From Gekko japonicus (taxonomy: Eukaryota): a stretch of DNA of 64,000 nt. Position 1 is the first letter of the stretch. Every line of letters starts with the position of its first letter. A model generated the notes under the pieces. The model was not told the origin of the DNA and did not search any database. It was given only the letters and a program-made list of their open reading frames with translations. Positions 1,669-61,584 of the stretch are shown piece after piece. The stretch spans positions 273,292-337,291 of the forward strand of contig NW_015170278.1 of NCBI RefSeq assembly GCF_001447785.1, read 5' to 3'. The position numbers and the translations under genes were made by a program.

Positions 1669-2524
1669 GCCAGCCAAAGTCCCTTCTTGTAATTTTGTTA
1701 TTGTTTATTATTGTAATTGTGCACTGAATATCCGTTAAAAAGAGCAATGGCTTTGGTAAAGTATTAAGTGAAAAACAAATAATGAAGTTCCTCTTCCACA
1801 TGCCCAGGGAGCAATAGTTGATAATGTTCAATTGATGAATGGGTGCTGAGGAACAGGTGGCCTGTGGGAAAATAGGAAATAATTAATTATGCTGGAAAGA
1901 TTAAAAATGTAAAAGGATATTAGCCCTGGGAAGCCTCAATAGTGCTTTGACTGTCTGTGCAGCACAGCCTGGTACAGTCATATTTAAGGTTTTTAAAATT
2001 AGTTTTATTACATTTAAACATAATGGAACAAATCCAGTCAACCATCAAGATTCAACAATACACATGTGGAACAAGGGAAAAAAATATTTAGGTACATACA
2101 AGTGGGAGATGTATGAGGACTTGCAGGGTCATCTCATTTCCCTGCCCGCATTGTCTCCTCTGTCCTTTCCCTGGCTTCCTTCTCTTTCCTGTGCTTCCTT
2201 CTCTTCTTCCCACCCACCAGCCAACCTAACAATCTGCGCCCCCCCCCCCATTTCAGCTTTCCCTCATATCCTCCCCCCTGGCAGCCACTCCCTTGGAAAA
2301 GTTTGGCTGTATTGTGTTGTGCCAGATGGGCTGTGCTGGGCCAAGTTACACAGCAGGAAGCAGGGAAGAGTTTGAAAGAAGCACTTTATTTTTTCCTATA
2401 TTCCTCTTCCCACACTGCTTTCTCCTCCTAGCAGTTCCCATATAATCAGCTTCTCTCCTTCTCACCCACCCACTCCACCTTTTATCTGCCCTTCATCTTC
2501 AGCTATATTTATTGTTTATTATTT

Positions 2525-2742
2525 ACTTAATTTATGTCCCGCCTTTCTCCCCAATGTTAACCCAAAGCAATTTACATCAATCTTCTCTCCTTTTTACCCT
2601 CACAACAACCCTATTAAGTAGGTTAGGGTGAGAATGTGTGAGTGACCCAAAGTCACCCAGTGAAGATCCGCAGCAGAGTGGGGATTCAAACCTGTGTCTC
2701 CTGGATCCAAATCTGAAACTCTAACCACAGCACCACACTGGC
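2525..2742 (-). mobile_element. older MIR/Squam3-like SINE
   Basis: Degenerate similarity to the Squam3 copies (cacaacaaccct..gtaggttagg..tgacccaaagtcacccag..gggattcaaacc..ctctaaccac). Confidence 0.6.
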
Positions 2743-3564
2743 TTTTGTGGGGTGACTGCTATTGAACAGCAGCAAGCAGCAGCAAGAAGCTGGACTTGAT
2801 TAAGTCATGCACTTGGTAGCACGTCATTCATGAAGGCTACTGGCCCTGGCCATAATGAGTCCTCCCTCAAAGGCTAAAATAGCCCTGGAAAGCTCCTGCC
2901 CCCCATCATTGCTGACAGAAACCAATGCTGGCAATACCTTTGTGGGTGCCTAGCAATTACCCCACTGTTTTTTAAGACACCAGGTTTTTCTGCAAACTTG
3001 GCGGTTTTCTCATGTTTGTAGAAAGATCTGTGCTCTCTGTTCATGGCTCCAGTCTCTAGATTTAAATATCTACCTATGGGACCTTTAAAATTAGTGATAT
3101 TGATATGTAACATAGAAGGGGGGGGACTATATACTAAGTTCTACTCTTAGGCTCACAAAACCCTATATAACTATATATTTTCACATACACAAAAATTACA
3201 CAACTATTAAATTCTACATTTAACTGCAAATCTTGAGTTCAAAAGTCAAGAAAGTTTCCATCCTCAAGTAAAATTGGGTTTTGATAATCTCCCATCCTTT
3301 AATCACATTAATCCTGTTCATATAGTACATTGAACAACTTTTACATTTAAATGTTTTGAGCTGTGTGCATCTTAGGTCTTAGCTTTGTGCATCTTAGCAA
3401 CTGCCATGAAGTATCTAAAGCCATTGCTCTGTACTTTGAAGAAATGGGGTCAGATAGAAGATCAAGTAGTACTGCTTCTAGGTATTATGGAATACTCAGT
3501 CATATGGAATATGTTTCTTAATTTTTTTTTGCCAGAAACCATTTACATAAGGACATGCCACCAC

Positions 3565-3773
3565 CAGTGTTCCCTCTAAGCCGAGTTAATGTGAGCTAGC
3601 ACACCATTTTTTTAGCCTCCAGCTCACACATTTTTGTCTTAGCTCAGGAAGGGATGGCTCCAGAGCAAACTAATTTATGCAGTAGCCACATCGCTCACTC
3701 ACAACTTTAATGCCAGTAGCTCACAAAGTAGAATTTTTTGCTCACAAGACTCCACACCTTAGAGGGAACACTG
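3565..3773 (+). mobile_element. hAT non-autonomous MITE
   Basis: Perfect 16-bp TIRs CAGTGTTCCCTCTAAG/CTTAGAGGGAACACTG and a perfect 8-bp TSD GCCACCAC. Confidence 0.93.
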
Positions 3774-7202: not shown

Positions 7203-8962
7203 AAGCAATCATCTATAGAGAAAAAGGAAGCTTGTCTACCAGTCTTGCAGAGGTGCTTATAATCAAAGAATACCCTGAGTCTTGCTTTGAAAGAAAAGCA
7301 TATTGGAAATATTTAAGTAAATTATAGCTATTGTTTACAGAAGAAATCTGAAAACCTAGAACATAGATGGAAGTTACTGTACTGGGACCAAACTGAGGCT
7401 GTATGTGGATTATATGTGCTCCATTCCAGGTTCCCTCTTGTCAGTTGTTAATGCAAATTCTGAAGTTCCACAGGCATTCTTGTGAGACTCTACAGTAACT
7501 CTCAGATGCAATAAGTCCATTTATGGATTTTATTATAGAAATCAGAAGAGCTGCAGGTGAATCAAACTCTTTGACAGTAATGGCAAATAATACAAAATTA
7601 TGATCTATGAGAATTCTGGTTCAGCCCACATTCATACGTCATGGTTACATGTGACAGAGACAGGTTAACAAAGTGCCAACTATAATGGTGTGAACATTTA
7701 TCTGAAATACTTCCTACAAGGCCATGAGAACTTAGAAACGCAAATAATCTCCTGGCCTCCATGTGGGAGGACACTTATACAGAGGTACAAAGCACTCTAT
7801 CTACAATACACATTCAAGCATGTCTCAACCACCCCCCACATCCTGAGAATGTCAGAGGAGGAACTGTGTAAACCAGTTGATACATTGCTAGCAGGTGTTA
7901 CATGAAGGATGGGAACTACAAGCAGGGATGAGAACGCAGAGATAAGCATGCAGAGACAGTTAAGAAGCAAGCAAGCTATGTACATCAGAACACCAGTGTG
8001 CATGTAGTCTGACCTGACACTCCAACCGAGGGCATGACGCTCAGAGATCTGATTCTGACAATTATTGAGGAAACAAAAGGCACAGGCAGTATTTATACTG
8101 GCTCTTAATGGTTCAGAGGATTCATACTGCACGTGTAGTTCTGGTACTATGGCGACCTTAGAGCTGGTGCCAGGCTTGTAGCCACAGTGATGCACAAAGG
8201 GGCGTGGCCACATCAATAATTTTTCATGCCTCTCCAATCAGCACCAATCAGACTGTCACAAGTCTTCTGCCAAAGAGAGAGGGTGTTTCCTTCCCTCCTC
8301 CTACCTCTCTCCCTGGCTTTGCCAATGAGGGAGAGATTCTCCTTCCCTCCCCCGCCTCCTTCTCAGGCTTTCCCTTTGCACTTTTCTTCCTGCACAAAGT
8401 ATTTGATTTGGCTGTGCTCTGAAGCATGTGACAAAGTCATTTTCCCGCCTTAGCTTGCTAGCTCGTGCCAGTCATGGATTCCTCTGATCAGCAGCACAAT
8501 AACACATTAAGGTAGAAACTTTTTTTTGCTCTATTTTAGCCCAGGTAGGGAGTGTTCATAGGTGGCTGGAATTGGGGTGGTGGCAGCAGAAGCAGCCTCT
8601 GTATTCTGCCTTTCACAAGTGGACTCATGGACATTTTACAGTGTGTGCTGGTAACCATGCAGCTGTTTTGGCCCTCTAAAACACTTGGGGTGGAGGGAAA
8701 GCGTTCTGCACCATAAGCCCACAGTGGAGCTCAGCAGTTTAAAGTCACTGTAAAATGACTGGTAATGAATTGGTGCTGGCAACAATTTTGCCTTCTCTTT
8801 TAACTGGGCTCAGCAAGGGGTAGGTTTCAATCTCTGTATCTGTAACAGGGAGCCTCCTCAGCTTCTCTTCCCGTCTGTGTGAAGCAAAAAAGCCACCCTT
8901 CCTCTGCATGCCAGGCAGGCTATAGATGCAAAGGAAAAGTGTGTGCGCGCGCACATACTTGC

Positions 8963-9161
8963 TAGGGTTGCCAACTCCATGCTCGAAAATTCCTAGAGAT
9001 TTGGGGGTTGGAGCCTGGGGAAAGTTGGGGAGGGACATTAATCAGGTATAATACCTTAGAGTCTGTCCTCTAAAGTAGCCATTTTCTCCAGGGGAAGTGA
9101 TTTCTCAGGTATGGTGATCACTTGTAATTCTGGGAGATCTCCAGGCTCCATCTGTAGGTTG
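8963..9161 (+). mobile_element. TAGGGTTGCCA-TIR MITE, right end interrupted
   Basis: Left TIR TAGGGTTGCCA plus the family core (ccattttctccagggga..tgatc..ttgtaattctgggagatctccagg). The same family recurs at about 20402, 32566, 58850-59314, 59696-60468 and 60536, and inside the Helitrons. Confidence 0.75.
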
Positions 9162-9880
9162 TCATGGGCCAGTTTGATGTGCCTGAGTCCAGTGTGGCTG
9201 AAGACTCCCCAGGAGTTGAGGAGCCACATGCAGCCAGCTCTGAACCAGCTAAAGTTAGTGAATTAGAGATACAGGAGCCTCAAGATTCATTGCTGGCAGC
9301 TGACTTTGACTGCATAGCTCTGAAGTAGCCGAGGAGGCTGCAGGAGAGTAGCCCACCAGGCTCCTCTTCATCAATTGAGCAGTGAAGAGAAAGGCTCGGA
9401 CAAGACTTAAGAACATGCAGACGGTGTGCTCACCTCTTGGGTCCGTGCCAGCTGTTTAATGATAGCAGTTTTGAGTAAGTGCAGGAGCACCTCCAAGCAG
9501 ATGGCTGTAAATCAGGCTTCTTAAGGAATGCCTATATAAATCAGACCTGGAGAACTGCAGATTGTGGAAGCAACTTGTCACAAACCTTTAAGCTTTGCGA
9601 CCACAATGCTGGACTCTGCCTGCAACCTTTGCTTTTCGGAGCTGCCTGAACCTTGCTGATTTATTTATTTATTAATTTATTATTTACATTTGTATCCCGC
9701 CCTCCCCGGAGGCTCAGGGCGGCTTGGACTGCCTTGACTCTGCTTTGCTGAACAACCCATGAACTCTGGCTGCTGCTAAACTGGTATTTGACCTCTGGAC
9801 TTGATTGTGATCTTGCTCTGTGGCCTAGCTCTGTTGCCTTACTCTGTTGGTATTCCAGGACACCTATTGTATTCCATCCT
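9159..9880 (+). mobile_element. probable LTR-like insertion, containing an L2 3'-tail fragment at about 9659-9725
   Basis: Begins TGTCATG where the MITE right TIR breaks off and has a TATA-like cctatataaa. The right boundary is unclear. Confidence 0.4.
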
Positions 9881-14686: not shown

Positions 14687-17590
14687 ATTTATTTATTTTA
14701 TTTATTTATTAATTTAATTTATATCCTTCTTTCCCCACAAGCGGGCTCAGGGTGGCTTACATATTTGGTCTGTAAATGAGAATTCATTCACATAAAAACA
14801 GTTTAAAATTCAATTACAATAAAACAAGAGTCTCATGAAGTCCTAGTGCTGAAACATTCAGTACATAAGATGGCATGCTGAAAATACCATATCAACAGAC
14901 AGTTTGCCACTCAATGGTATTCCTGAGCGCGGTGGTAGAGTTCAGATGTTGAAACTATGGGCCGGCTCATTGGTAGCTGCAATCGTAGCTGCAAAGTACT
15001 CTCTCTTCATGGCTTTGACTGCCATCTCATAGGATCTCATAAACGTCCTATAGGATGCTCTTGTAGCTTCGTCACGAGCGCAGCGCCACCGTCTCTATAG
15101 CTGTCTTAGCTCTCACTTCATGAGCCGCAACTCCTGGGTAAACCAGGGAGCAAGCCTAGAGCGAAAGCACAGAGGGCAACGGGGAGCAATCTTGTAAATG
15201 GCTGTGGAGAGTCAGTTGTGCCAGTCCTTCACAAGCTCATCCAACAAGCCACCAGGGAGCATTAGATCCTGTAGAGCCATCAGAAGTTGCATTGGGTCCA
15301 TCTGGCTCCATGGGCGAGCTAAAATATTTGCTTGCTGCCTAAACAGGGTCAGGGCAGCACATTCAGACGGCCCCCGGGACATGGTGGTCTGACCATGGGA
15401 CTGCCGAAGCAGTGACCCAGTCCACTGTTACCCCTGCCGTGAAGATCAAATCGAGCGTGTGCCCGGCTCAGTGAGTTGGGTTCCTTACATATTGAGAGAG
15501 TCCCAGTGCCGCCATGGACGACACCAGGTCTGCTGCCTGAGTGGAGGCTGCGTCATCAGCATGGACATTGAAATCACTCAGGACTATCAATCTAGGGTGT
15601 TCCAGTGCCCAGCCTGATACGACCTCCATCAGGGACAGCAGGCTATTGGCCAGAGCATTAGGCGGTCGGTACACCAGCTAAATCACCAAACTCTCCCCGG
15701 CCTCCCATGCCAGGCCGGCGCACTCAATGCCGGTGATCTTTGATGGTGGGAGCACCCTGAAGGAGTAAGCCTCCCGAATGAACAGAGCCACTCCTCCCCC
15801 CCCGGCCTTTAGTCCATGATTGGTGAAGGACCGAGAACCCAGGAGGAGCCAACTGGGAGAGAGCCACTGTCTCCCCATCTCGCACCCAGGTCTCAGTCAT
15901 GCACACCAGGTCCATGTCCTGCTCCAGCAGTAAGTCACAAAGGACCATGGTCTTATTATTTATGGACCTGGCATTACACAAAACTAGTGACGGAGAGGTG
16001 TTGTTAATCCGAGCCCCACTGCCAACTACCTTTGGGATGGGACATAGGCTGGAAGGGGACCAAGCCTTTCTGTTTCTTAGTCGCTTTCCCTTATATTTAT
16101 GCCTAGTCCCACCGCTATACTTTCCCCTCCTCAGGAGCACTGGTATCCCTTGGCCAGCCATCACCACTAATAGTCTTTGCTAAGGCACAGACCACTAGTA
16201 GCCTGGTAGGTGGGAATGTAGGGGTTCTATAGCAGTTCTCTCTGCTGTAGTAGTTGTCCTAGATAAACTCAAACAAGCCTAATTTATCCTTACATTAATT
16301 AATTCTAATAGTCTAACAATTTGGTACAAAAATCACTCTCATGCACTGATCAGTAAAAAAGTAAAGGCCAGTGATGACATCCCAGTTTGCCCTATAGCTC
16401 TAACTATAAGTTCAACTTCCCAATTTGTTAGATATCAATTACACACAAAAACAACCCGTAGGATAATTAGTCCCTCGGATTCAGTTGATTAATCCCATAC
16501 AATTCATTCCTTTGCTTTAATCTGGTAGGATTTTAAATCTCTATCATCCCTTCAATTAATTTCTCCCACATTTAGCCCTTAATCAATTGCAATAATTACC
16601 CTAATATAGTTGCCTCCAACTAACATCAACGTCAAATTAATTTTGGTCTAACTTTCTAGGCATCCTAACTCCAATATCTTGGTAGCCGCTTGTCACCTTC
16701 TCTACTCTACATGTGCACTCCAGTGCAGAGTCTCTGGTTGCTTTCCTGCGCTGTGGTGAGAGAGTTCCTGAAGTCCTGAAAGTCTTCCTCGGTTGTGGTC
16801 TCCCCTGTCGCTTCTCCAAAACGCCCAGTGGCCCCTGGTCCTGGTTCCTGCCCGCCAAGGCCCTGGTAGATCTTGCTGCCAGCTGGTTGGTAACCTTTGC
16901 ATCCAACTAAGTTGTGTGTGGCTGGGCTAATCCCCAGGAAGAGGGGGAACCTCTCATGAGCCCCCCAGCCTACCATCCTGCTCCGCCAGCCGGGAAGCAT
17001 GCACCACCACGCCCGCGACAATGACTCACAGTAGGCAGGCAAGCAGCAAGAGTGGTCAAAAATGGAGAACAAGGGCAGGCATGGCTGCATCAGCAAGCGG
17101 CCACAGCGTCCCAGGATGGGCACAGCATGGCGGCTGTGGCTGCTACCGTGGCTAGCGAGTGAACTGAAGAGAAACCAGTGGCTGCCACCCAGCCACCGCT
17201 GCCATGCTCACCTAGCAAGTCTGAACAGCCACCCCGCTGGGGCTGGAAGGATGTCACCTCGCTGGGACAGGGAAGGCTGCTGCTGCTGCGAGCAAGCGAG
17301 CGAACCGAGGCAAAGCCAGCGGCTGTTGCTCACTCAGCTGCCGCCGGCACGCTCACCTGGCAAGTCTGAGGAGCCGCCCCACAGAGTGCTCAAAGCTGGG
17401 CCGGTTCCAGTCGCCACAAGATGCCAGGGGACCCTGCGCTGTGCACCTGCCGGGACAAGGAAGGTGTCAGTCTGTAAGTTTTCAGTCTCTGAGCTCGCTT
17501 TCCTGTAGTGCAGGTGGAGGTTAGCAGCTAGCGGCTAGCGAAGAACTGCTCGATTTTGCTGTTTTGGGGCAGAGCCTCTAGCACTAGGCT
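14687..17590 (-). mobile_element. L2-clade LINE with 5' region and endonuclease but lacking RT
   Basis: APE endonuclease motifs (LCNARSINNK, CMTETW, GGGVALF, YRPP, SDFNVH, PTH) lie across frameshifted ORFs 15468-16167. The linker (APWFTQELR) is joined near 14965 directly to the L2 3' UTR and (AAAT)n tail. Confidence 0.85.
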
Positions 17591-24042: not shown

Positions 24043-24456
24043 AGTATAACAGGATGTATCCATTTGGCTTCCTTTGCACTGCCATGAAATTGATTTTTCT
24101 CATAGGGAAATAAATGCTTAAAACATGATGTACTGGGGAAAATGTAACATATTCTATTAATATCTTGCTTTAAGTGCTACATAAATATAGGTTGTGCAAG
24201 CAAATATTCTATTTGGCATATAAAGATGACATTGCCTCCAGGTTTAAGAAATTATTGTAGCAAGAACAACAATGGTAAAAATTCTACAGATTTAACATGA
24301 CATGATAGAAAAGGATGACTGAAGCTTCACACTAAACAAACAAAAAAACACCTGCAGCTGTAGATTTCCAGCATGCTATTTGTCAGGTTGTCATTCTGTT
24401 TTTTTTTTTTTTAATGAAAAAGAGGTTCCTGCACTAGCTTTACAAATTATTGATAA

Positions 24457-25384
24457 CTAGGAAAAAGGCCCGTTGTGGAAATAAATACAACAGCCTCTAG
24501 AAAGAGGCGGGTGCCCCAGCCTTGGACACTCAGTGTCATTTTGCTGTGGCGACCCCAGCAGGGTATAATGACACTGAGTCCACCATTTTCTCCAGAGGAA
24601 CTGATCTCTGCTACCTAAAGAACAGTTGTAATTTTGAGTGCTCTCCAGCCCTCACCTGGAGATTGACAATGATGGTTCCCCAGAAGGGAATGGTTGGTTT
24701 GGAGGGTGGAGTCTATGGCTCTGTACCTGTCCGAGGTCCCACGCCTCCTGAAACCTCACCCTCTCCAGGCTCCATCCCTCACATCTCCAGGAATTTCCCA
24801 CCTGAAGTTGGCAACCCTATCTCCTTCCCAGTCAATCATCAACCTACCTTTATTTTCCCCTCACTCTTCAGCTTTCCATCCCCCACACACCTGCAGCCTC
24901 TCCCGTGCTCTGAAGCCCTGACTGCTGCATCTCATTGGCTGTCATATGGGGGCTACCTCAGCAGCATATAAGGATACAGAGCCCACCATTTTCTCCAGGG
25001 GAACTGATCTCTGCCATCTGGAAAGCAGTTGTAATTCTGAGGGATCTCCAGCCCTCACCTGGAGATTGGACACATTTTACCTCAGAACAGCAAACTGTTT
25101 AGAATGTTAGAGGCAAAAGCCAATCAAGTTGCATATGCAAACGGCCTCTGTGTTCCGAGGCAAAGGCCAATGAGGCTGTATATGCAAATAACCTCTGTGT
25201 TCTGACTGGCTATGGGGGGAGAGGAACAGCAAACTGTTTAGAATGTTGGAGGCGAGACTCAAGCAATGCAGCCAGTGGATAGGGACAGATTCTGAGTGAC
25301 ACACCAGGGTGCCAACCAATTTCGGAGCGTGTGGAATGTTCTAGAGAAGTGCCACCACCATTCGGCTTTTATTTATAAGGGAGA
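24457..25384 (-). mobile_element. non-autonomous Helitron, copy 1
   Basis: The minus strand starts TC (tctcccttataaataaaagc) and ends with a subterminal hairpin plus CTAG. It sits between host A and T with no TSD and has the same boundaries as copy 2. Confidence 0.88.
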
Positions 25385-34054: not shown

Positions 34055-34989
34055 CTAGGAAAAAGGCCCGTTGTGGAAATAAATACAACAGCCTCTAGAA
34101 AGAGGCTCTGGGCGGGTGCCCCAGCCTTGGACACTCAGTGTCATTTTGCTGTGGCGACCCCAGCAGGGTATAATGACACTGAGTCCACCATTTTCTCCAG
34201 AGGAACTGATCTCTGCTACCTAAAGAACAGTTGTAATTCTGAGTGCTCTCCAGCCCTCACCTGGAGATTGGCAATGATGGTTCCCCAGAAGGGAATGGTT
34301 GGTTTGGAGGGTGGAGTCTATGGCTTTGTACCTGTCCGAGGTCCCACGCCTCCTGAAACCTCACCCTCTTCAGGCTCCATCCCTCACATCTCCAGGAATT
34401 TCCCACCTGGAGTTGGCAACCCTATCTCCTTCCCAGCCAATCATCAACCTACCTTTATTTCCCCCTCACTCTTCAGCTTTCCACCCCCCACACACCTGCA
34501 GCCTCTCCCATGCTCTGAAGCCCTGACTGCTACGTCACATTGGCTGTCATATGGGGGCTACCTCAGCAGTATATAAGGATACAGAGCCCACCATTTTTTC
34601 CAGGGGAACTGATCTCTGCCATCTGGAAAGCAGTTGTAATTCTGAGGGATCTCCAGCCCTCACCTGGAGATGGACACATTTTACCTCAGGACAGCAAGCT
34701 GTTTAGAATGTTAGAGGCAAAAGCCAATCAAGTCACATATGCCAATGACCTCTGTGTTCCGAGGCAAAGGCCAATGAGGCTGCATATGCAAATAACCTCT
34801 GTGTTCTGACTGGCTATGGGGGGGGGAGGAACAGCAAAATGTTTAGAATGTTGGAGGCAGGACTCAGGCAAAGCAGCCAGTGGATAGGGAGACCCTCTGA
34901 ATGACAGATCAAAGAGCGAACTGATTTTTGAGTGTGTGGAATTTTCTAGAGAAGTGCCACCACCATTCAGCTTTTATTTATAAGAGAGA
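34055..34989 (-). mobile_element. non-autonomous Helitron, copy 2
   Basis: Near-identical to 24457-25384. It has the A|TC...hairpin-CTAG|T structure on the minus strand and unrelated flanks. Confidence 0.88.
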
Positions 34990-37293: not shown

Positions 37294-38880
37294 TCCCTAG
37301 ATAGAGCTCAGGGTGCTGTACACTAGGTACTAAAATCACAAACACTAATCAACAATTTAAAATAATAAATAAACATTTCAGTAAAATTCATAATAGCAAT
37401 ACAATTAAATCAGATGGCGGTCCAATTCCAACATTGCTTCCAACTTGCAGTGGGGAGGGGAGAGAATGAAGACAGTCAGGTAGTCACTGTCCTCAACCAA
37501 ACGCCTGGTGGAGCATCTCTGCCTTAAAGGCCCTGCAGAACTGTAACAAGTCTTGCAGGGCATGGATGTTACTTGGTAGAGAGTTCCACCAGGTTATCTA
37601 GAGTCAGGAGTTGGCACCCCAACCCTGAATCCTCCCTATCCAGCCACAGAACCTGTCTTAGCTGTATTCAGATAACTCTGTTTCAACCATCCCACCACGG
37701 CCTCCAGTCCCTCAGCCAAAACAGTTAGGGCGACATCCAGCTGGCCACCCATCAACAGATATAGCTGGGTGTCATCAGCATACGGGTGGCACCCTAGCCC
37801 AAAACTCTGCACCAGTTGGACAAGGTGGTGCATGCAGATGTTATACAGCATCAGGGAGAAGATTGTTTCCTGAGGGACCCCACACACCAAGGGGTGCCTA
37901 GCAGACACCCTCTCCCCTAGCACCACCCTCTGGCCCCAGCCTTGGAGAAATGAGGTAAACCACTTCAAGACTATCCTGTGGATTCCTATGTCGGCAAGAC
38001 AGTGGTTCAAAAGATCGTGATTGACCATGTCAAACACTGCTGTAAGGTCAAGAAGCAACAGCACCACTGACCCACCTCAATCCAACTGCTTGCGGAGATC
38101 ATCCATGAGGGTGACCAGTGCCATTTCTGTCCCATGGCTAGGGTGGAAACTGGACTGGAATGGGTCCAGAAAATTCTGGAGCTGTTCCACCACCATTCTC
38201 TCAATTGCCTTTCCCAGAAATGAAATATTAGAAACTGAGCAGTAATTGGATGGATCTAAAGGATCCAATGTTGGCTTCTTTAAGAATGCTACAATCACAG
38301 TTTCTTTTAATCCCTCTGGATAGACCCCTGAATGATAATGTCCACCAGAGGGCCCCATGTTCCCTCGCCACTGGCTTTTACCGGCCACAAGGGACACAGG
38401 TCCAAGAGGCATGTAGTCCACCTGACAGCACCTAGAATCCTGTCTACATCGGCCTGGGAGAGTTGGCTGAAGCTTTCAAACACAGAATCCAGAGATGGCC
38501 AAGGGGCCTCCAGTTCACATACTCTACCAATATTGGCTGGGAGATCGTGGTGGAGCAACAAGACTTTATCCACAAAAAAGCTCACAAAGGCCCCACAGCT
38601 GATGGCCGAATTCCTAACATTTTTGATTCTCTCGGTGAGAGAAGTTAAAGATCCAGTTACCCTAAACAATTGTGCTGGGTGTGAGCTAGTGGACATGATG
38701 GAGGTTTTAAATAAAATCTTTTTATCAGCCTTCACCACTACCTCATAGGATTTCATAAACATCCTTACAGCTTCGTCACGAGAACACCGCCAATCTCGCT
38801 CTAGCTGTCTTAAGTTCCTGTTTCAATCCCCTGAGTTCCATAGTATACCAGGGGGACAATTTAGATTGGGAATGTAGAGG
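37294..38880 (-). mobile_element. L2 LINE, 5'-truncated, degraded RT
   Basis: LLLDLTAVFDMVNH, CGVPQ, YADDTQLY and LKKPTLDP..NY motifs, with the 3' UTR next to the assembly gap. Confidence 0.9.
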
Positions 38881-38970: not shown

Positions 38971-39112
38971 TTACCCCACAGGATATCAGCAAGCATGAAA
39001 GCAGAAGCACAGAGAAAAAATGTTTCATTTAAAGAATGTACTACAATTAATCTAATGATACAGTCTGTATTTGTTTAAAGGGAAGATGTATTTGATTTCT
39101 TTAAATGTGTTC

Positions 39113-58091: not shown

Positions 58092-58849
58092 CTGGAGAAG
58101 GGAGCAAAACCACCACCATCCCACTGCAGCCGTCTTGTTCTTTTTCTGGGTGACGGCCATGGTGGTGATTGTAGTCTCTTCTGTGCAGCCAGCTTACTCA
58201 CATCCTGGCAGGTGCTGGGATGAGAGTTCAGAGGTTGTAGAGAAGGATTGGAAAGAATGGGTCCTTTATTTTGATCCCTGACACAAGGACCAATGCTCAG
58301 GCTTGCAGTTTACCTATCCTCTGGTCCTTATGGCAGCAGCCAAATACAAGCTCCACTGGGCAATGGCCTTGCCACACTGGGGGGAAATGATTGGAAGAGC
58401 CACAGATAGCATGTCAAAAGAGTCATACGTGGTTCCCAAGCTACTAAGGGAGTATCACTGATTTAAGGCCACAGTGTTATGCATACTAAATCCTGTTGAA
58501 ACTAATGGGAGTCACCTCCAAATAAACATGCAAAGAGTTGAGCTAGGTTTGAATTTCAAATACATGAAGGATAACTATACATACCATTTCTAAGGTTTCT
58601 CGCTTCACTAAGAGTTGGACAAGCGTAAGGACAGGTTGTTTTTTGGGGGGGGGAATCTAACTCTACTTTCTCAAACAATTCTACGCATTAATCTCTGAAT
58701 GTATCCTCTGGGTACCCTCAGATTGTTTCACGTCTAAATATAAACATTGATAGAGATAGGTGGTTTATTAGAGAGATACTCCCCCACCACACCCCACACA
58801 GCAGCAGCGGTGCTCCCAGCCACCCACCTGCTTCCTCTCCCCCTACAGC

Positions 58850-59314
58850 AGCAGTGGCAACTCTCCAGGAATCACAATGGATCTCACAGCTACAGAGATC
58901 AATTCACCTTAGGGCTGCCAGCTCCAGGTTGGGAAATTCCTAGAGATCTAGGGGTGGAGCCTTGGGACATTGAGGGTTGGGGAGGGAAGCAGCCTCAGCA
59001 GGGTATTCAACCCTCCGAACCAGCCATTTTATCCAGGGTAACTGATCACTGTTACCTGGACAACAGTTGTATCTCTTCAATAAACTTTCTCTCTCTGTGT
59101 TCGAGAGTGAGATGACTGACAGTAATTCTGGGTGATCTCCAGCCCTCATTTGGAGGCTGGCAATGGTAGTTCTCATGGAGGAAATGGCTGGTTTGGAAGG
59201 TGGAGTCTATGGCATTATATTAGTCTGAAATTCCTCCCCTCCTCAAATCCCACCCTCCCCAGACTCCACCCCTCAAATGTCCAGGAATTTCCCAACCCGG
59301 AGTTGACAGCCCTA
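58850..59314. mobile_element. two TAGGGTTGCCA-family MITEs, one nested in the other in opposite orientation
   Basis: The + copy at about 58910-59165 interrupts a minus copy that ends agttgacagcccta. Confidence 0.6.
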
Positions 59315-59695
59315 TTGCTTTCCCACCCAACACCCAATCTACCTTTATCTGCCTCTCTGTCTTCAGCTCTCCATCTCCCCATCTCCCCACACCTCCCCCC
59401 ACAGCCTCTGCCTAGGAAGATTACAGTCTTTCTCACAGTGGGAACCAAAGCAGCTTACATTATTCTCTCCTCCTTTTTATCTGCACAACAACCCTGTGAG
59501 GTTGGTTAGACTGAAAGTACATGACTGTTCCAAAAATAACCCCGTCCGCTTCCACTGCAAAATGGGGATCTGAACCTGCGTTTTGCAAACCCTACTTCAA
59601 AGCTTTAACTGCTGCACCACGCTGGCTTTCATACGGTGGCTGCTGTTGAAGAGTAGCAAGCAGCCATGTGAATCAGGTGGTATCAAGTCACCCAG

Positions 59696-60468
59696 AGGGT
59701 GCTGCCTAGAGATGCCAGCCTCCAGGTGGGACCTGGTGACCCCATGGAATTACTGCTCATTTCCAGACTACAGAGATAACTTCACATGGATAAAATTGAT
59801 GCTTTGGAGGGTGGACTCTATGGCATTGTACCTCACTGGACACTTTCCCTATGAGGAAAGGTTAAAGCGCTTAGGGCTCTTTAGCTTGGAGAAAAGACGA
59901 CTGAGGGGTGACATGATCGAGGTTTATAAGATTATGCATGGGAAAGAGCAGGTAAAGAAAGAGGTACTTTTCTCCCTTTCTCACAATACAAGAACTCGTG
60001 GGCACTCCATGAAACTGCAGAGCGGTCGGGTTAGAACGGATAAAAGGAAGTACTTCTTCACCCAAAGAGTGATTAACACATGGAATTCACTGCCACAGGA
60101 AGTGGTGGGTGCTACAAGCATGGACGGCTTCAAAAGGGAATTAGATAAGCATATGGAGCAGAGGTCCATCAGTGGCTATTAGCCACAAGGTATAGCTAGG
60201 GGCTCTGGGGCAAGTGATGCTCTGTCTTCTTGGTGCTTGGGGGGGGGGGTCAACAGTGGGAGGGCTTCTAATGTCCTGGCCCCACTGCTGGACCTCCTGA
60301 TGGCACTGGTATTTCTGGCCACTGTGTGACACAGAGTGTTGGACTGGATGGGCCTTTGGCCTGATCCAACATTGGCGTCTCTTATGTTCTTATGTTCACT
60401 GAGGTCCCTGTCCTCCACAGGGCCCACCCCAAATCTCCAGGAGTTTCCCAGCCTGGATCTTGCAACCT
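59696..60468 (-). mobile_element. TAGGGTTGCCA-family MITE interrupted by CR1
   Basis: The family sequence breaks at 59837 and resumes at about 60397 (cactgaggtccctg...cttgcaacc). Confidence 0.7.
59838..60395 (+). mobile_element. young CR1 LINE 3' end
   Basis: Open ORF2 C-terminus (YEERLKRLGLFSLEKRRLRGDMIEVYKIM...TRGH...FFTQRVINTWNSLP), a (CTTATGTT)n tail and an approximate TSD tcactg. Confidence 0.95.
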
Positions 60469-61584
60469 TCCCCCCCCCCCCATACCCTGCTGGTAGCCAG
60501 GAGGGACCTGGCAACCCTGGACTGATGCCAGGCCTAGGGTTGCCAGCCTCCAAGTGGGACTTGTAGACACCCCAGACTCTAGACAGCAGAGATCCGTCTC
60601 CCTGGAGAAAATGGTTACTTTGGAGGGTGGACTCTGTGGCATTATACCCAGCTGAGGCTCTCTCTTCCCCAAACCCAGCCCTTAGAGACTACTGCAAAAC
60701 CTTTAGGAATTCCCCATCCTGGCACTGGCAATCCTTGTCAGGCCTGGCCCCAAGGCTCCCTCTCTCAAAGGCAAAAATAGGCCTGGAAAGGGGCCTTCCC
60801 CCCCCCCCCAATACCTTTTACTGACAGAGCCAGTTAGAAGCCCCCCCCCCCAATGTTCTAATCTTTCACTGTTGATGCCTGGAGTGACTGGCCCCTGTGG
60901 AGGTTTTGGGGGGAATTCAACCCTTCCCAAGGTTTTTTTGTAGATTTACAGTAACCACTGGGTAACTTTCTGGATTGCCATACAATTTTGAGCAAAGCTT
61001 GACTTGAATGCAGTATTGAGCAACTTTATATATGTACAGTAGACATTTTTACCAGCTTTTCTGCATTAGTGCCTCATATGCTGCAGAGTTATGAAGACAA
61101 TTGATCAGAGCTGCTCTTCATCATGCTGCAGACAAGAGTACATGGTTGTTATGTGATAGAGAATAACAGCCCTTCCCCTCCCTCCCAATAACCAACAAGT
61201 CCCTGTAGGCAGTATAAGAATGTTCATGTGCATATTGATCTACATTGGGGTCCTAGTTAACAAATCCTGGGTCATGTGGGTATGATAGGACAAGAATCCC
61301 ACACAGTCTGAGACACTTTCTCAGTCAAGCAAGTTAGCAACAAACTTTTGGCAGATGTGGGGCATACTTGTTAGAGTTCCCGTGAAACAATGTAAGAATG
61401 CCTATGCTCAAGTTGATTTAGATCTGGACAATTTGCCTGGCATTAATGAACCCTGGGAGGAACAACAGCCATAACATAGCAGCAAGCCACTAACTATGAA
61501 ATGTTAATTTGTGGGGCGCAGTTTTGAAAAGGCAATCAGAAGATGGGCAGGTAGAGGGGCCAGTGAAGAAGGGAGCTGTGGCAA

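Follow-up and report, generated by a model that had tools for sequence, protein, structure and literature searches.

Results

Two copies of a Helitron in the window

The window is the whole stretch of Gekko japonicus DNA that was analysed, 64,000 nucleotides long. It holds two copies, A and B, of a family with a 936 bp consensus, and a degraded member of an older family, here called family 2. Their features are the following:

24457..25384, minus strand: copy A, non-autonomous Helitron of subfamily a, 928 bp, inserted between A and T, 2.7% from its own consensus
34055..34989, minus strand: copy B, non-autonomous Helitron of subfamily b, 935 bp, inserted between A and T, 2.9% from its own consensus
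25070..25384, minus strand: family-specific 5′ part of copy A, with the TC terminus, TATA-rich first 20 bases and short internal duplications
24951..25069, minus strand: MITE piece 1, a second copy of the inner-MITE piece that no longer has the terminal repeat
24820..24950, minus strand: non-MITE spacer, common to older Helitron families
24675..24819, minus strand: MITE piece 2, derived from the left part of the outer MITE and alone in keeping an intact terminal repeat (24809-24819)
24548..24669, minus strand: MITE piece 3, from the end of the inner MITE, in the opposite orientation to piece 2 and with a decayed terminal repeat
24457..24547, minus strand: 3′ part, with the inner hairpin (24493-24508), the terminal hairpin (24470-24493) and the CTAG end
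58779..60950, minus strand: degraded copy of family 2, an older Helitron-like element of ~2.3 kb (left limit from BLAST, right limit approximate)

Copies A and B are 94.0% identical over 936 columns, with sharp ends and unrelated flanks, and the two ~930 bp copies with exact shared ends of the original prediction are found where it had placed them. On the minus strand both read A/TC...CTAG/T, the slash marking the limit of the element, without target site duplication, and the second hairpin GCCTCT-AGAA-AGAGGC is borne out at 24493-24508. The terminal hairpin has a 7 bp family stem, CCGTTGT/ACAACGG, located 13 bases from the end; it had been given earlier as GCTGTTGT, because each window copy carries one CpG-type C>T in this stem. 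The family thus has two adjacent 3′ hairpins. For the last 60 bases of copies A and B folding beats shuffled sequences (z of −3.1 and −5.0, with 2 and 0 of 200 shuffles as good), and over three copies z ranges from −2.5 to −5.0. Among 31 copies, whose flanks are unrelated, the 3′ end is CTAG in 27 and CTAA in 2, and the 5′ end is TC in 29 and TT in 2; in a separate set of 30 copies, picked by the 5′ pattern, TC is there by construction.

The 5′ 316 bases of the family (25070-25384 in copy A) had no source or match in the fetched non-family loci. At about 25120-25190 on the minus strand they include short duplicated units with an octamer motif, ATTTGCAT, and a number of ATTGG boxes; judged from sequence, such sites could be spread by thousands of Helitron copies. 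The 936 bp family lacks a coding frame, and Pfam detected nothing in the two element frames tested. Rfam gave a single weak match (mir-459, E 0.3), far under the cut-off. Across the window, a Pfam scan of 44 of the 149 frames of at least 75 aa detected LINE remnants only, with reverse transcriptase and endonuclease pieces at 824-1288, 15727-16179 and 37639-38076, and no host gene domain in these 44 frames.

Copy number, target site and empty site

Searching the genome with copy A gave 7,664 candidates; the 40 that were scored are all full length, and those other than copy A itself are 94-95% alike. A 27-base pattern of the 5′ end has 2,434 exact matches in the genome and a 24-base pattern of the 3′ end has 4,281, the reversed control giving 0 in both cases. 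The 3′ count takes in sister families, the variant of the 936 bp family being present in 38 of the first 100 matches listed. In raw reads of the same species, depth over the 5′ part is 2,500-3,700, compared to ~0.67 expected for single-copy DNA, which suggests roughly 4,000-5,500 copies, a rough figure.

The target site was examined in 45 full-length copies, made up of copy B, the 30 matches that scored best and 14 drawn from a set of 30 unbiased 5′ matches. A length cut of 880-1000 bp removed the remaining 16 of that set, half of them (8) for want of a 3′ end within 1.5 kb and the other 8 for large indels. An A precedes 43 of the 45 copies and a T follows 43 of them. Target duplication is absent in 40; of the others, four show a 2 bp TA overlap and one lies inside a TTTA microsatellite, and these five apparent overlaps are explained by AT-rich flanks. 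When all unbiased copies are taken, A is found before 29 of 30 and T after all 22 with a placed 3′ end. The 3′ side of the target is AT-rich, with A or T at 247 of 270 places (91%) from +7 to +12 past the 3′ end, against 166 of 270 (61%) from −10 to −5.

An empty site was found for copy A, to which this comparison is limited. Record 17 from the relative X3 joins window position 24455 to 25384 (record positions 1110 and 1109), and record 11 from X20 makes the same join (290 and 291); X13 does not span the site. Since 24456 and 25384 are both A, the join amounts to a precise loss of 24457-25384, without a base added or missing. The flanks of copy A are diverged by ~6.4% from the X3 contig and by ~4.6% from that of X20. 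The empty sites place the insertion of copy A later than the separation from these two relatives, which are 4.6-6.4% diverged. Polymorphism within the species was looked for in X21, where read depth at the flanks of copy A is below 1x.

We conclude that the 936 bp family is a real non-autonomous Helitron that has transposed, as its termini, its 2,434 5′ ends, its target between A and T and the empty site all indicate. The genome-wide search of the termini proposed with the original prediction thus gave a numerous family, with A before and T after 43 of 45 copies each and copies 2.7-2.8% from consensus; none of the outcomes that were to refute the prediction (variable ends, target duplications or a missing AT target, homology running into the flanks) was the one encountered. 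Elements of the Helentron/DINE-1 type have a T/T target and subterminal inverted repeats. A T/T target is not that of the present family, which inserts between A and T and ends in CTAG.

Subfamilies and age

The 46 copies compared fall into subfamily a (34 copies, including copy A) and subfamily b (12, including copy B), which are 2.2% apart. They differ at 21 sites, 20 of which lie in the first 151 bases. Copies A and B are in different subfamilies, and therefore neither was copied from the other. Distance to the subfamily's own consensus is 2.7% for b and 2.8% for a, this last figure being biased low by the choice of 30 of the 46 copies for their likeness to copy A; without CpG sites the distances are 2.1-2.2%. 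Four unbiased a-type copies average 3.75% from consensus. The least diverged copy, L116, lies 1.0% from its own consensus, and the closest pair among the 46 copies is 2.8% apart.

Letters typical of subfamily b make up 42-50% of the reads of the species itself. In the contig depth of X3 and X20 their share is mostly larger (24-97% across five sites), contig depth being a poor measure. There is a hint here that subfamily a is the later one. The distances to consensus and between copies agree with a burst that took place at about the time when the nearer relative split off, or later. Lizard DNA accumulates 1-2.5 changes per billion sites per year, and at this rate the burst would be roughly 9-22 million years old; it likely ended millions of years ago. 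The recent activity assumed in the original prediction is not seen, as there are no near-identical copies among the 46. We conclude that the family is moderately young and that nothing shows current activity. A very young subfamily could be present among the thousands of unseen copies.

MITE pieces inside the Helitron and free MITEs

Pieces of a MITE, in both orientations, make up 384 of the 936 consensus bases (41%). The original prediction is upheld as to these pieces, located at 24548-24819 and 24951-25069 in copy A; its estimate of about half the interior was slightly too high. At three mismatches or fewer, copy A contains only two end-like MITE motifs, one intact and one with two mismatches, both on the minus strand, so that they form no inverted pair. 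No unit can therefore be excised.

The free MITE is 219 bp long, with 11 bp inverted ends, and its closest known kind is the Blackjack-like hAT-type MITE with TAGGG-type ends. Its right end has 4,040 matches in the genome. Thirty were examined without bias: none shares a common downstream flank with others, and the left end is present in 20. Twelve of these 20 complete MITEs have an 8 bp duplication matched at 6 or more of 8 places, and they lie 12% from their consensus. No such signal was seen for 7 or 9 bp duplications, save one of 6 of 9. An 8 bp target duplication is the rule for hAT-type elements, and the free MITE is an old family of this type. We conclude that the Helitron multiplies dead MITE sequence and no mobile MITE. 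The claim that a Helitron is amplifying another transposon family holds for inert fragments; as to the family itself it is not supported, given the lack of an inverted-end pair and the 12% divergence of the free MITEs.

Two other probes for free MITEs were discarded. A 31-base left-end motif has 901 genome matches, yet it had been taken from family 2 and favours the Helitron-borne variant: 23 of 30 sampled matches have Helitron-module flanks and only 1 of 30 is a clear free copy, and the right-end motif was used instead. The window MITE at 8963 was unfit for the target-duplication test, its 30 matches having both flanks in common, inside a larger element. This MITE (8963-9170) lies in a repeat of ~1.4 kb (window ~8100-9550; L127-L156), whose consensus ends look like inverted repeats starting from CAGGCC and which is another composite DNA transposon carrying the same MITE. 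A further element, at window 22139, starts with the same 11-base end and has a different interior.

An older Helitron-like family with the same module

Likeness of copy A to the nested MITEs at 58850-59314, also part of the original prediction, is genuine and runs past the MITE: the 936 bp family matches 59122-59379 at 77% over 258 bp, of which ~65 bp are non-MITE flank. The stretch 58850-59400 has itself 6,350 candidate matches in the genome; among the 40 scored, the 39 others are 86-89% alike. It belongs to family 2, of which 19 loci were searched. A TATA-rich start with A/TC was found in 4 of them, and a hairpin followed by a CTTG-like end in 10 (exactly CTTG/T in 7 of the 10, and not CTRR). 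Divergence within family 2, 3.8-21%, comes from a poor alignment and is unfit for dating.

The window copy of family 2 contains the complete MITE-in-MITE nest at 58850-59314. In the family the inner MITE has both its ends and is inserted in the outer MITE at AGGGGAAC of the free consensus, decayed copies of this 8-mer flanking it on both sides. The family (window 58779-60950; L032-L050, L160, L161, L170, L173) carries four or more MITE copies together with a SINE-like piece, and most copies end in a hairpin and CTTG/T. The window copy is interrupted by two later insertions, one of ~50 bp at 59070-59121 and one of ~555 bp at about 59839-60395, which is a repeat with a ACATAAGA tail; this tailed repeat recurs at 39112 and 57792.

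Positions 482-833 of the 936 bp family match family 2 at 79%. Other relatives have the 3′ end of the 936 bp family with other 5′ ends, namely L074 (1,640 bp, matching positions 358-936 at 87%), L080 (1,972 bp) and several of L157-L186. Distance to the free MITE is 12.5% for the family 2 piece and 17.6-18.5% for the pieces of the 936 bp family. A tree built from 19 rows over 133 columns, with a star on one fork only, groups both inverted pieces of the 936 bp family and both of L074 in one clade (97/94) with a common 13-base deletion, and the inner MITE of family 2 adjoins this clade (94/88). One L074 piece is sister to piece 1 and the other to piece 3, and pieces 1 and 3 share the 13 bp deletion. 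This pairing and the common deletion mean that all three pieces go back to a single nest, which was duplicated before the 936 bp family and L074 split. A MITE with a perfect 8 bp duplication also lies inside L074. We conclude that the MITE pieces were likely inherited from older Helitron families and not freshly captured.

A related RepHel protein

A PF14214 profile gave 34 matches in the genome, 16 of which were fetched at first. In one group of RepHel genes (group 1: L071, L072, L074, L077 and L078), the 3′ ends match that of the 936 bp family at 38-40 of 50 and 21-23 of 30 bases. Group 2 was rejected as a partner, with 5-6 of 30. Group 1 proteins have the Pfam domains Helitron_like_N (Rep), PIF1 and Pif1_2B, and align with Helraiser at E 6e-188 over residues 347-874, HUH motif included. 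Stops interrupt 5 of 7 group 1 copies, and L078 shows both a frame change and a long gap. No stop is found in L071 on either side of a 341-base assembly gap, and it has no close dispersed copies. The 3′ end of L183, which bears the module, is nearly the same as the autonomous one. This Helitron lineage is tied to the group 1 RepHel.

A candidate 5′ end, at a repeat boundary upstream of the broken gene in L074, agrees with that of the family at 24 of 30 bases (none of 2,000 shuffles of the first 40 bases is as good). This suggests a candidate parent element of 10.6 kb at G000:C14036:229163-218543, in which we infer the link from the 5′ end to the RepHel gene. At L074:401-2090, the 1,640 bp non-autonomous relative starts 3 bases past the 3′ end of the RepHel element, a head-to-tail layout that could be a source of new ends by read-through.

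Helitrons are assigned to one family when they are 80% identical over their last 30 bases (PMC4224331). An autonomous element reaching 80% or more at each of its two ends was not found, the group 1 3′ ends matching at 21-23 of 30. The search for a Rep/Helicase with matching ends, proposed at the outset, thus led to related ends (24/30 at 5′, 21-23/30 at 3′) but not to the exact driver. A family copy beside a RepHel gene in L086 is on the other strand and is a neighbour only. A tandem 3′ end upstream of L071 was set aside as a clue to the 5′ end of that element, since the downstream flank is in common and points to a local duplication.

In a search of proteins 1,394-3,980 residues long, the closest hits are at most 59% identical and include annotated proteins of Paroedura picta, Zootoca vivipara and Bombina bombina; this search gave no sign of a recent transfer. 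Two observations were made on the surroundings of these genes. The stopless RepHel of L071, L187 and L228 (G000:C11350:29864-39686) lies in a locally duplicated stretch together with Ig heavy-chain V-like segments, and heptamers resembling recombination signals were read there by eye. The region upstream of the group 1 RepHel (L188:41-1500, L190:600-2300, L234) is made of repeated units of ~220 bp with splice-like AG/GT bounds, like an array of small exons.

Discussion

Taken together, it is very probable in our judgement that the 936 bp elements form a non-autonomous Helitron family of more than 2,400 copies, inserted between A and T without duplication, which likely spread by rolling circle with the help of a related autonomous RepHel, and which inherited its MITE nest while its ends changed. 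By analogy with Helraiser (PMC4778049), the RepHel protein, likely supplied by a related autonomous Helitron, would nick the TATA-rich 5′ TC end and peel off one strand, copying would stop at the hairpin before CTAG, and the copy would be joined into a site between A and T with an AT-rich 3′ side. As for the interior, one old hAT-type MITE probably jumped into another, with an 8 bp duplication. The nest would then have entered the Helitron lineage once, been truncated and duplicated, and been handed on while the lineage changed its ends. The 936 bp family may have arisen by fusion of 316 bases of its own, on the 5′ side, to 620 inherited bases on the 3′ side. The nest could have come either by read-through capture or by MITEs jumping into an ancestral Helitron, and the MITE with a perfect duplication in L074 agrees with both.

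Could copies A and B instead be a local duplication, segmental or tandem, or a composite hAT MITE, with no Helitron involved? Two copies within 64 kb are indeed uncommon under a uniform spread (P ~0.002-0.008 per window). However, the flanks are unrelated, the copies are of different subfamilies, and the element has neither terminal inverted repeats nor an 8 bp duplication, and leaves a precise empty site at copy A; we give this explanation practically no credit. The original prediction went further than a Helitron and had it capture host DNA. In a fresh capture, the 936 bp family would have taken a host stretch with MITE pieces by 3′ read-through, from 58850-59314 or similar. Homology does extend beyond the MITE end into non-MITE flank, and read-through capture is described for Helraiser (PMC4778049). 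But 58850-59314 is one of thousands of such stretches inside a larger repeat with Helitron-like ends, which disqualifies it as a host donor, and it is only 77% like a family whose copies are less than 3% from consensus. The module is moreover common to older Helitron families with other ends, and no single-copy donor was found for it. A fresh capture by the 936 bp family is thus largely refuted and very unlikely, one capture in an ancestor being what may remain of it.

The inherited module being the preferred reading, its carrier might still be active, or have been until very recently, driven by an intact RepHel such as L071. The absence of copy A from two relatives, the lack of a stop in either aligned part of L071 (498 and 745 aa, with the 341-N gap between them) and the short distance of L116 from its consensus agree with this idea. 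It is opposed by the 2.8% that separate even the closest pair of copies, by the nearest other copies of L071, which are 89-91% alike save a 96% neighbour with a common flank, and by the 3′ end of L071, which matches at 23 of 30 only. We therefore consider present-day or very recent activity very unlikely.

More broadly, and with less confidence than for the family itself, we lean towards a long-lived lineage like that of vesper bats. A nested hAT-MITE and SINE module would have passed through successive families with different ends, some of them CTTG, well over 10,000 copies together; a real share of annotated MITE DNA would be Helitron cargo, and the nested pieces would be a dated record of end swaps. 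Helitron bursts in amniotes are, to our knowledge, well described in vesper bats only. The lizard lineage, with its thousands of copies, its presence or absence between close species and its chain of chimeric families, adds a second amniote case, one where the order of end swaps and of cargo inheritance can be worked out. Precise empty sites like these can serve as phylogenetic markers. Repeat libraries will mis-call these Helitrons as hAT MITEs or SINEs. With the left-end motif, 23 of 30 sampled matches have Helitron-module flanks; with the right-end motif, none of 30 has a flank in common with others. No gene capture or functional effect is shown.

The mechanism itself is already known, and bat Helitrons carrying other transposons are published. 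The family may also be catalogued already: our literature search found no title or abstract on gecko Helitron families, and it covered neither Repbase and Dfam nor subscription journals and supplements. Gecko repeats are described as poorly classified (PMC5381603), and a squamate review treats Helitrons in passing only (PMC10379679). That Helitrons occur in some lizards, as the original prediction says, agrees with a report on the green anole (PMC2997563) and with RepHel proteins annotated in a gecko and a lacertid.

The closest known parallel is HelibatN of vesper bats (PMC4224331, PMC4778049). It has in common with the 936 bp family the 5′ TC, the 3′ hairpin and CTRR, the target between A and T without duplication and the AT-rich 3′ flank, which is also reported for Helraiser (PMC4778049). 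Its average size (~800 bp), many subfamilies and exemplars with changed ends are similar too, as is its cargo of DNA transposons and retrotransposons, built up sequentially over a long time. Bat Helitrons comprise hundreds of exemplars, active from ~36 to 1.8-6 million years ago (PMC4224331); both read-through and insertion next to another Helitron are sources of new 3′ ends (PMC4778049). Terminal sequences and host are different, the gecko family has two adjacent 3′ hairpins, and its cargo is transposon scrap in which no gene fragment was found. The group 1 RepHel is a relative of that of Helraiser (PDB 7LCC) at the family level only. Compared to hAT-type MITEs with TAGGG-type ends, the Helitron contains only fragments, with end-like motifs all on one strand. 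Finally HeligloriaB is likewise a non-autonomous Helitron in a lizard, the green anole, and no autonomous partner was detected for it in that genome (PMC2997563); it has 667 copies against at least 2,434 in the gecko, where the interior is composite.
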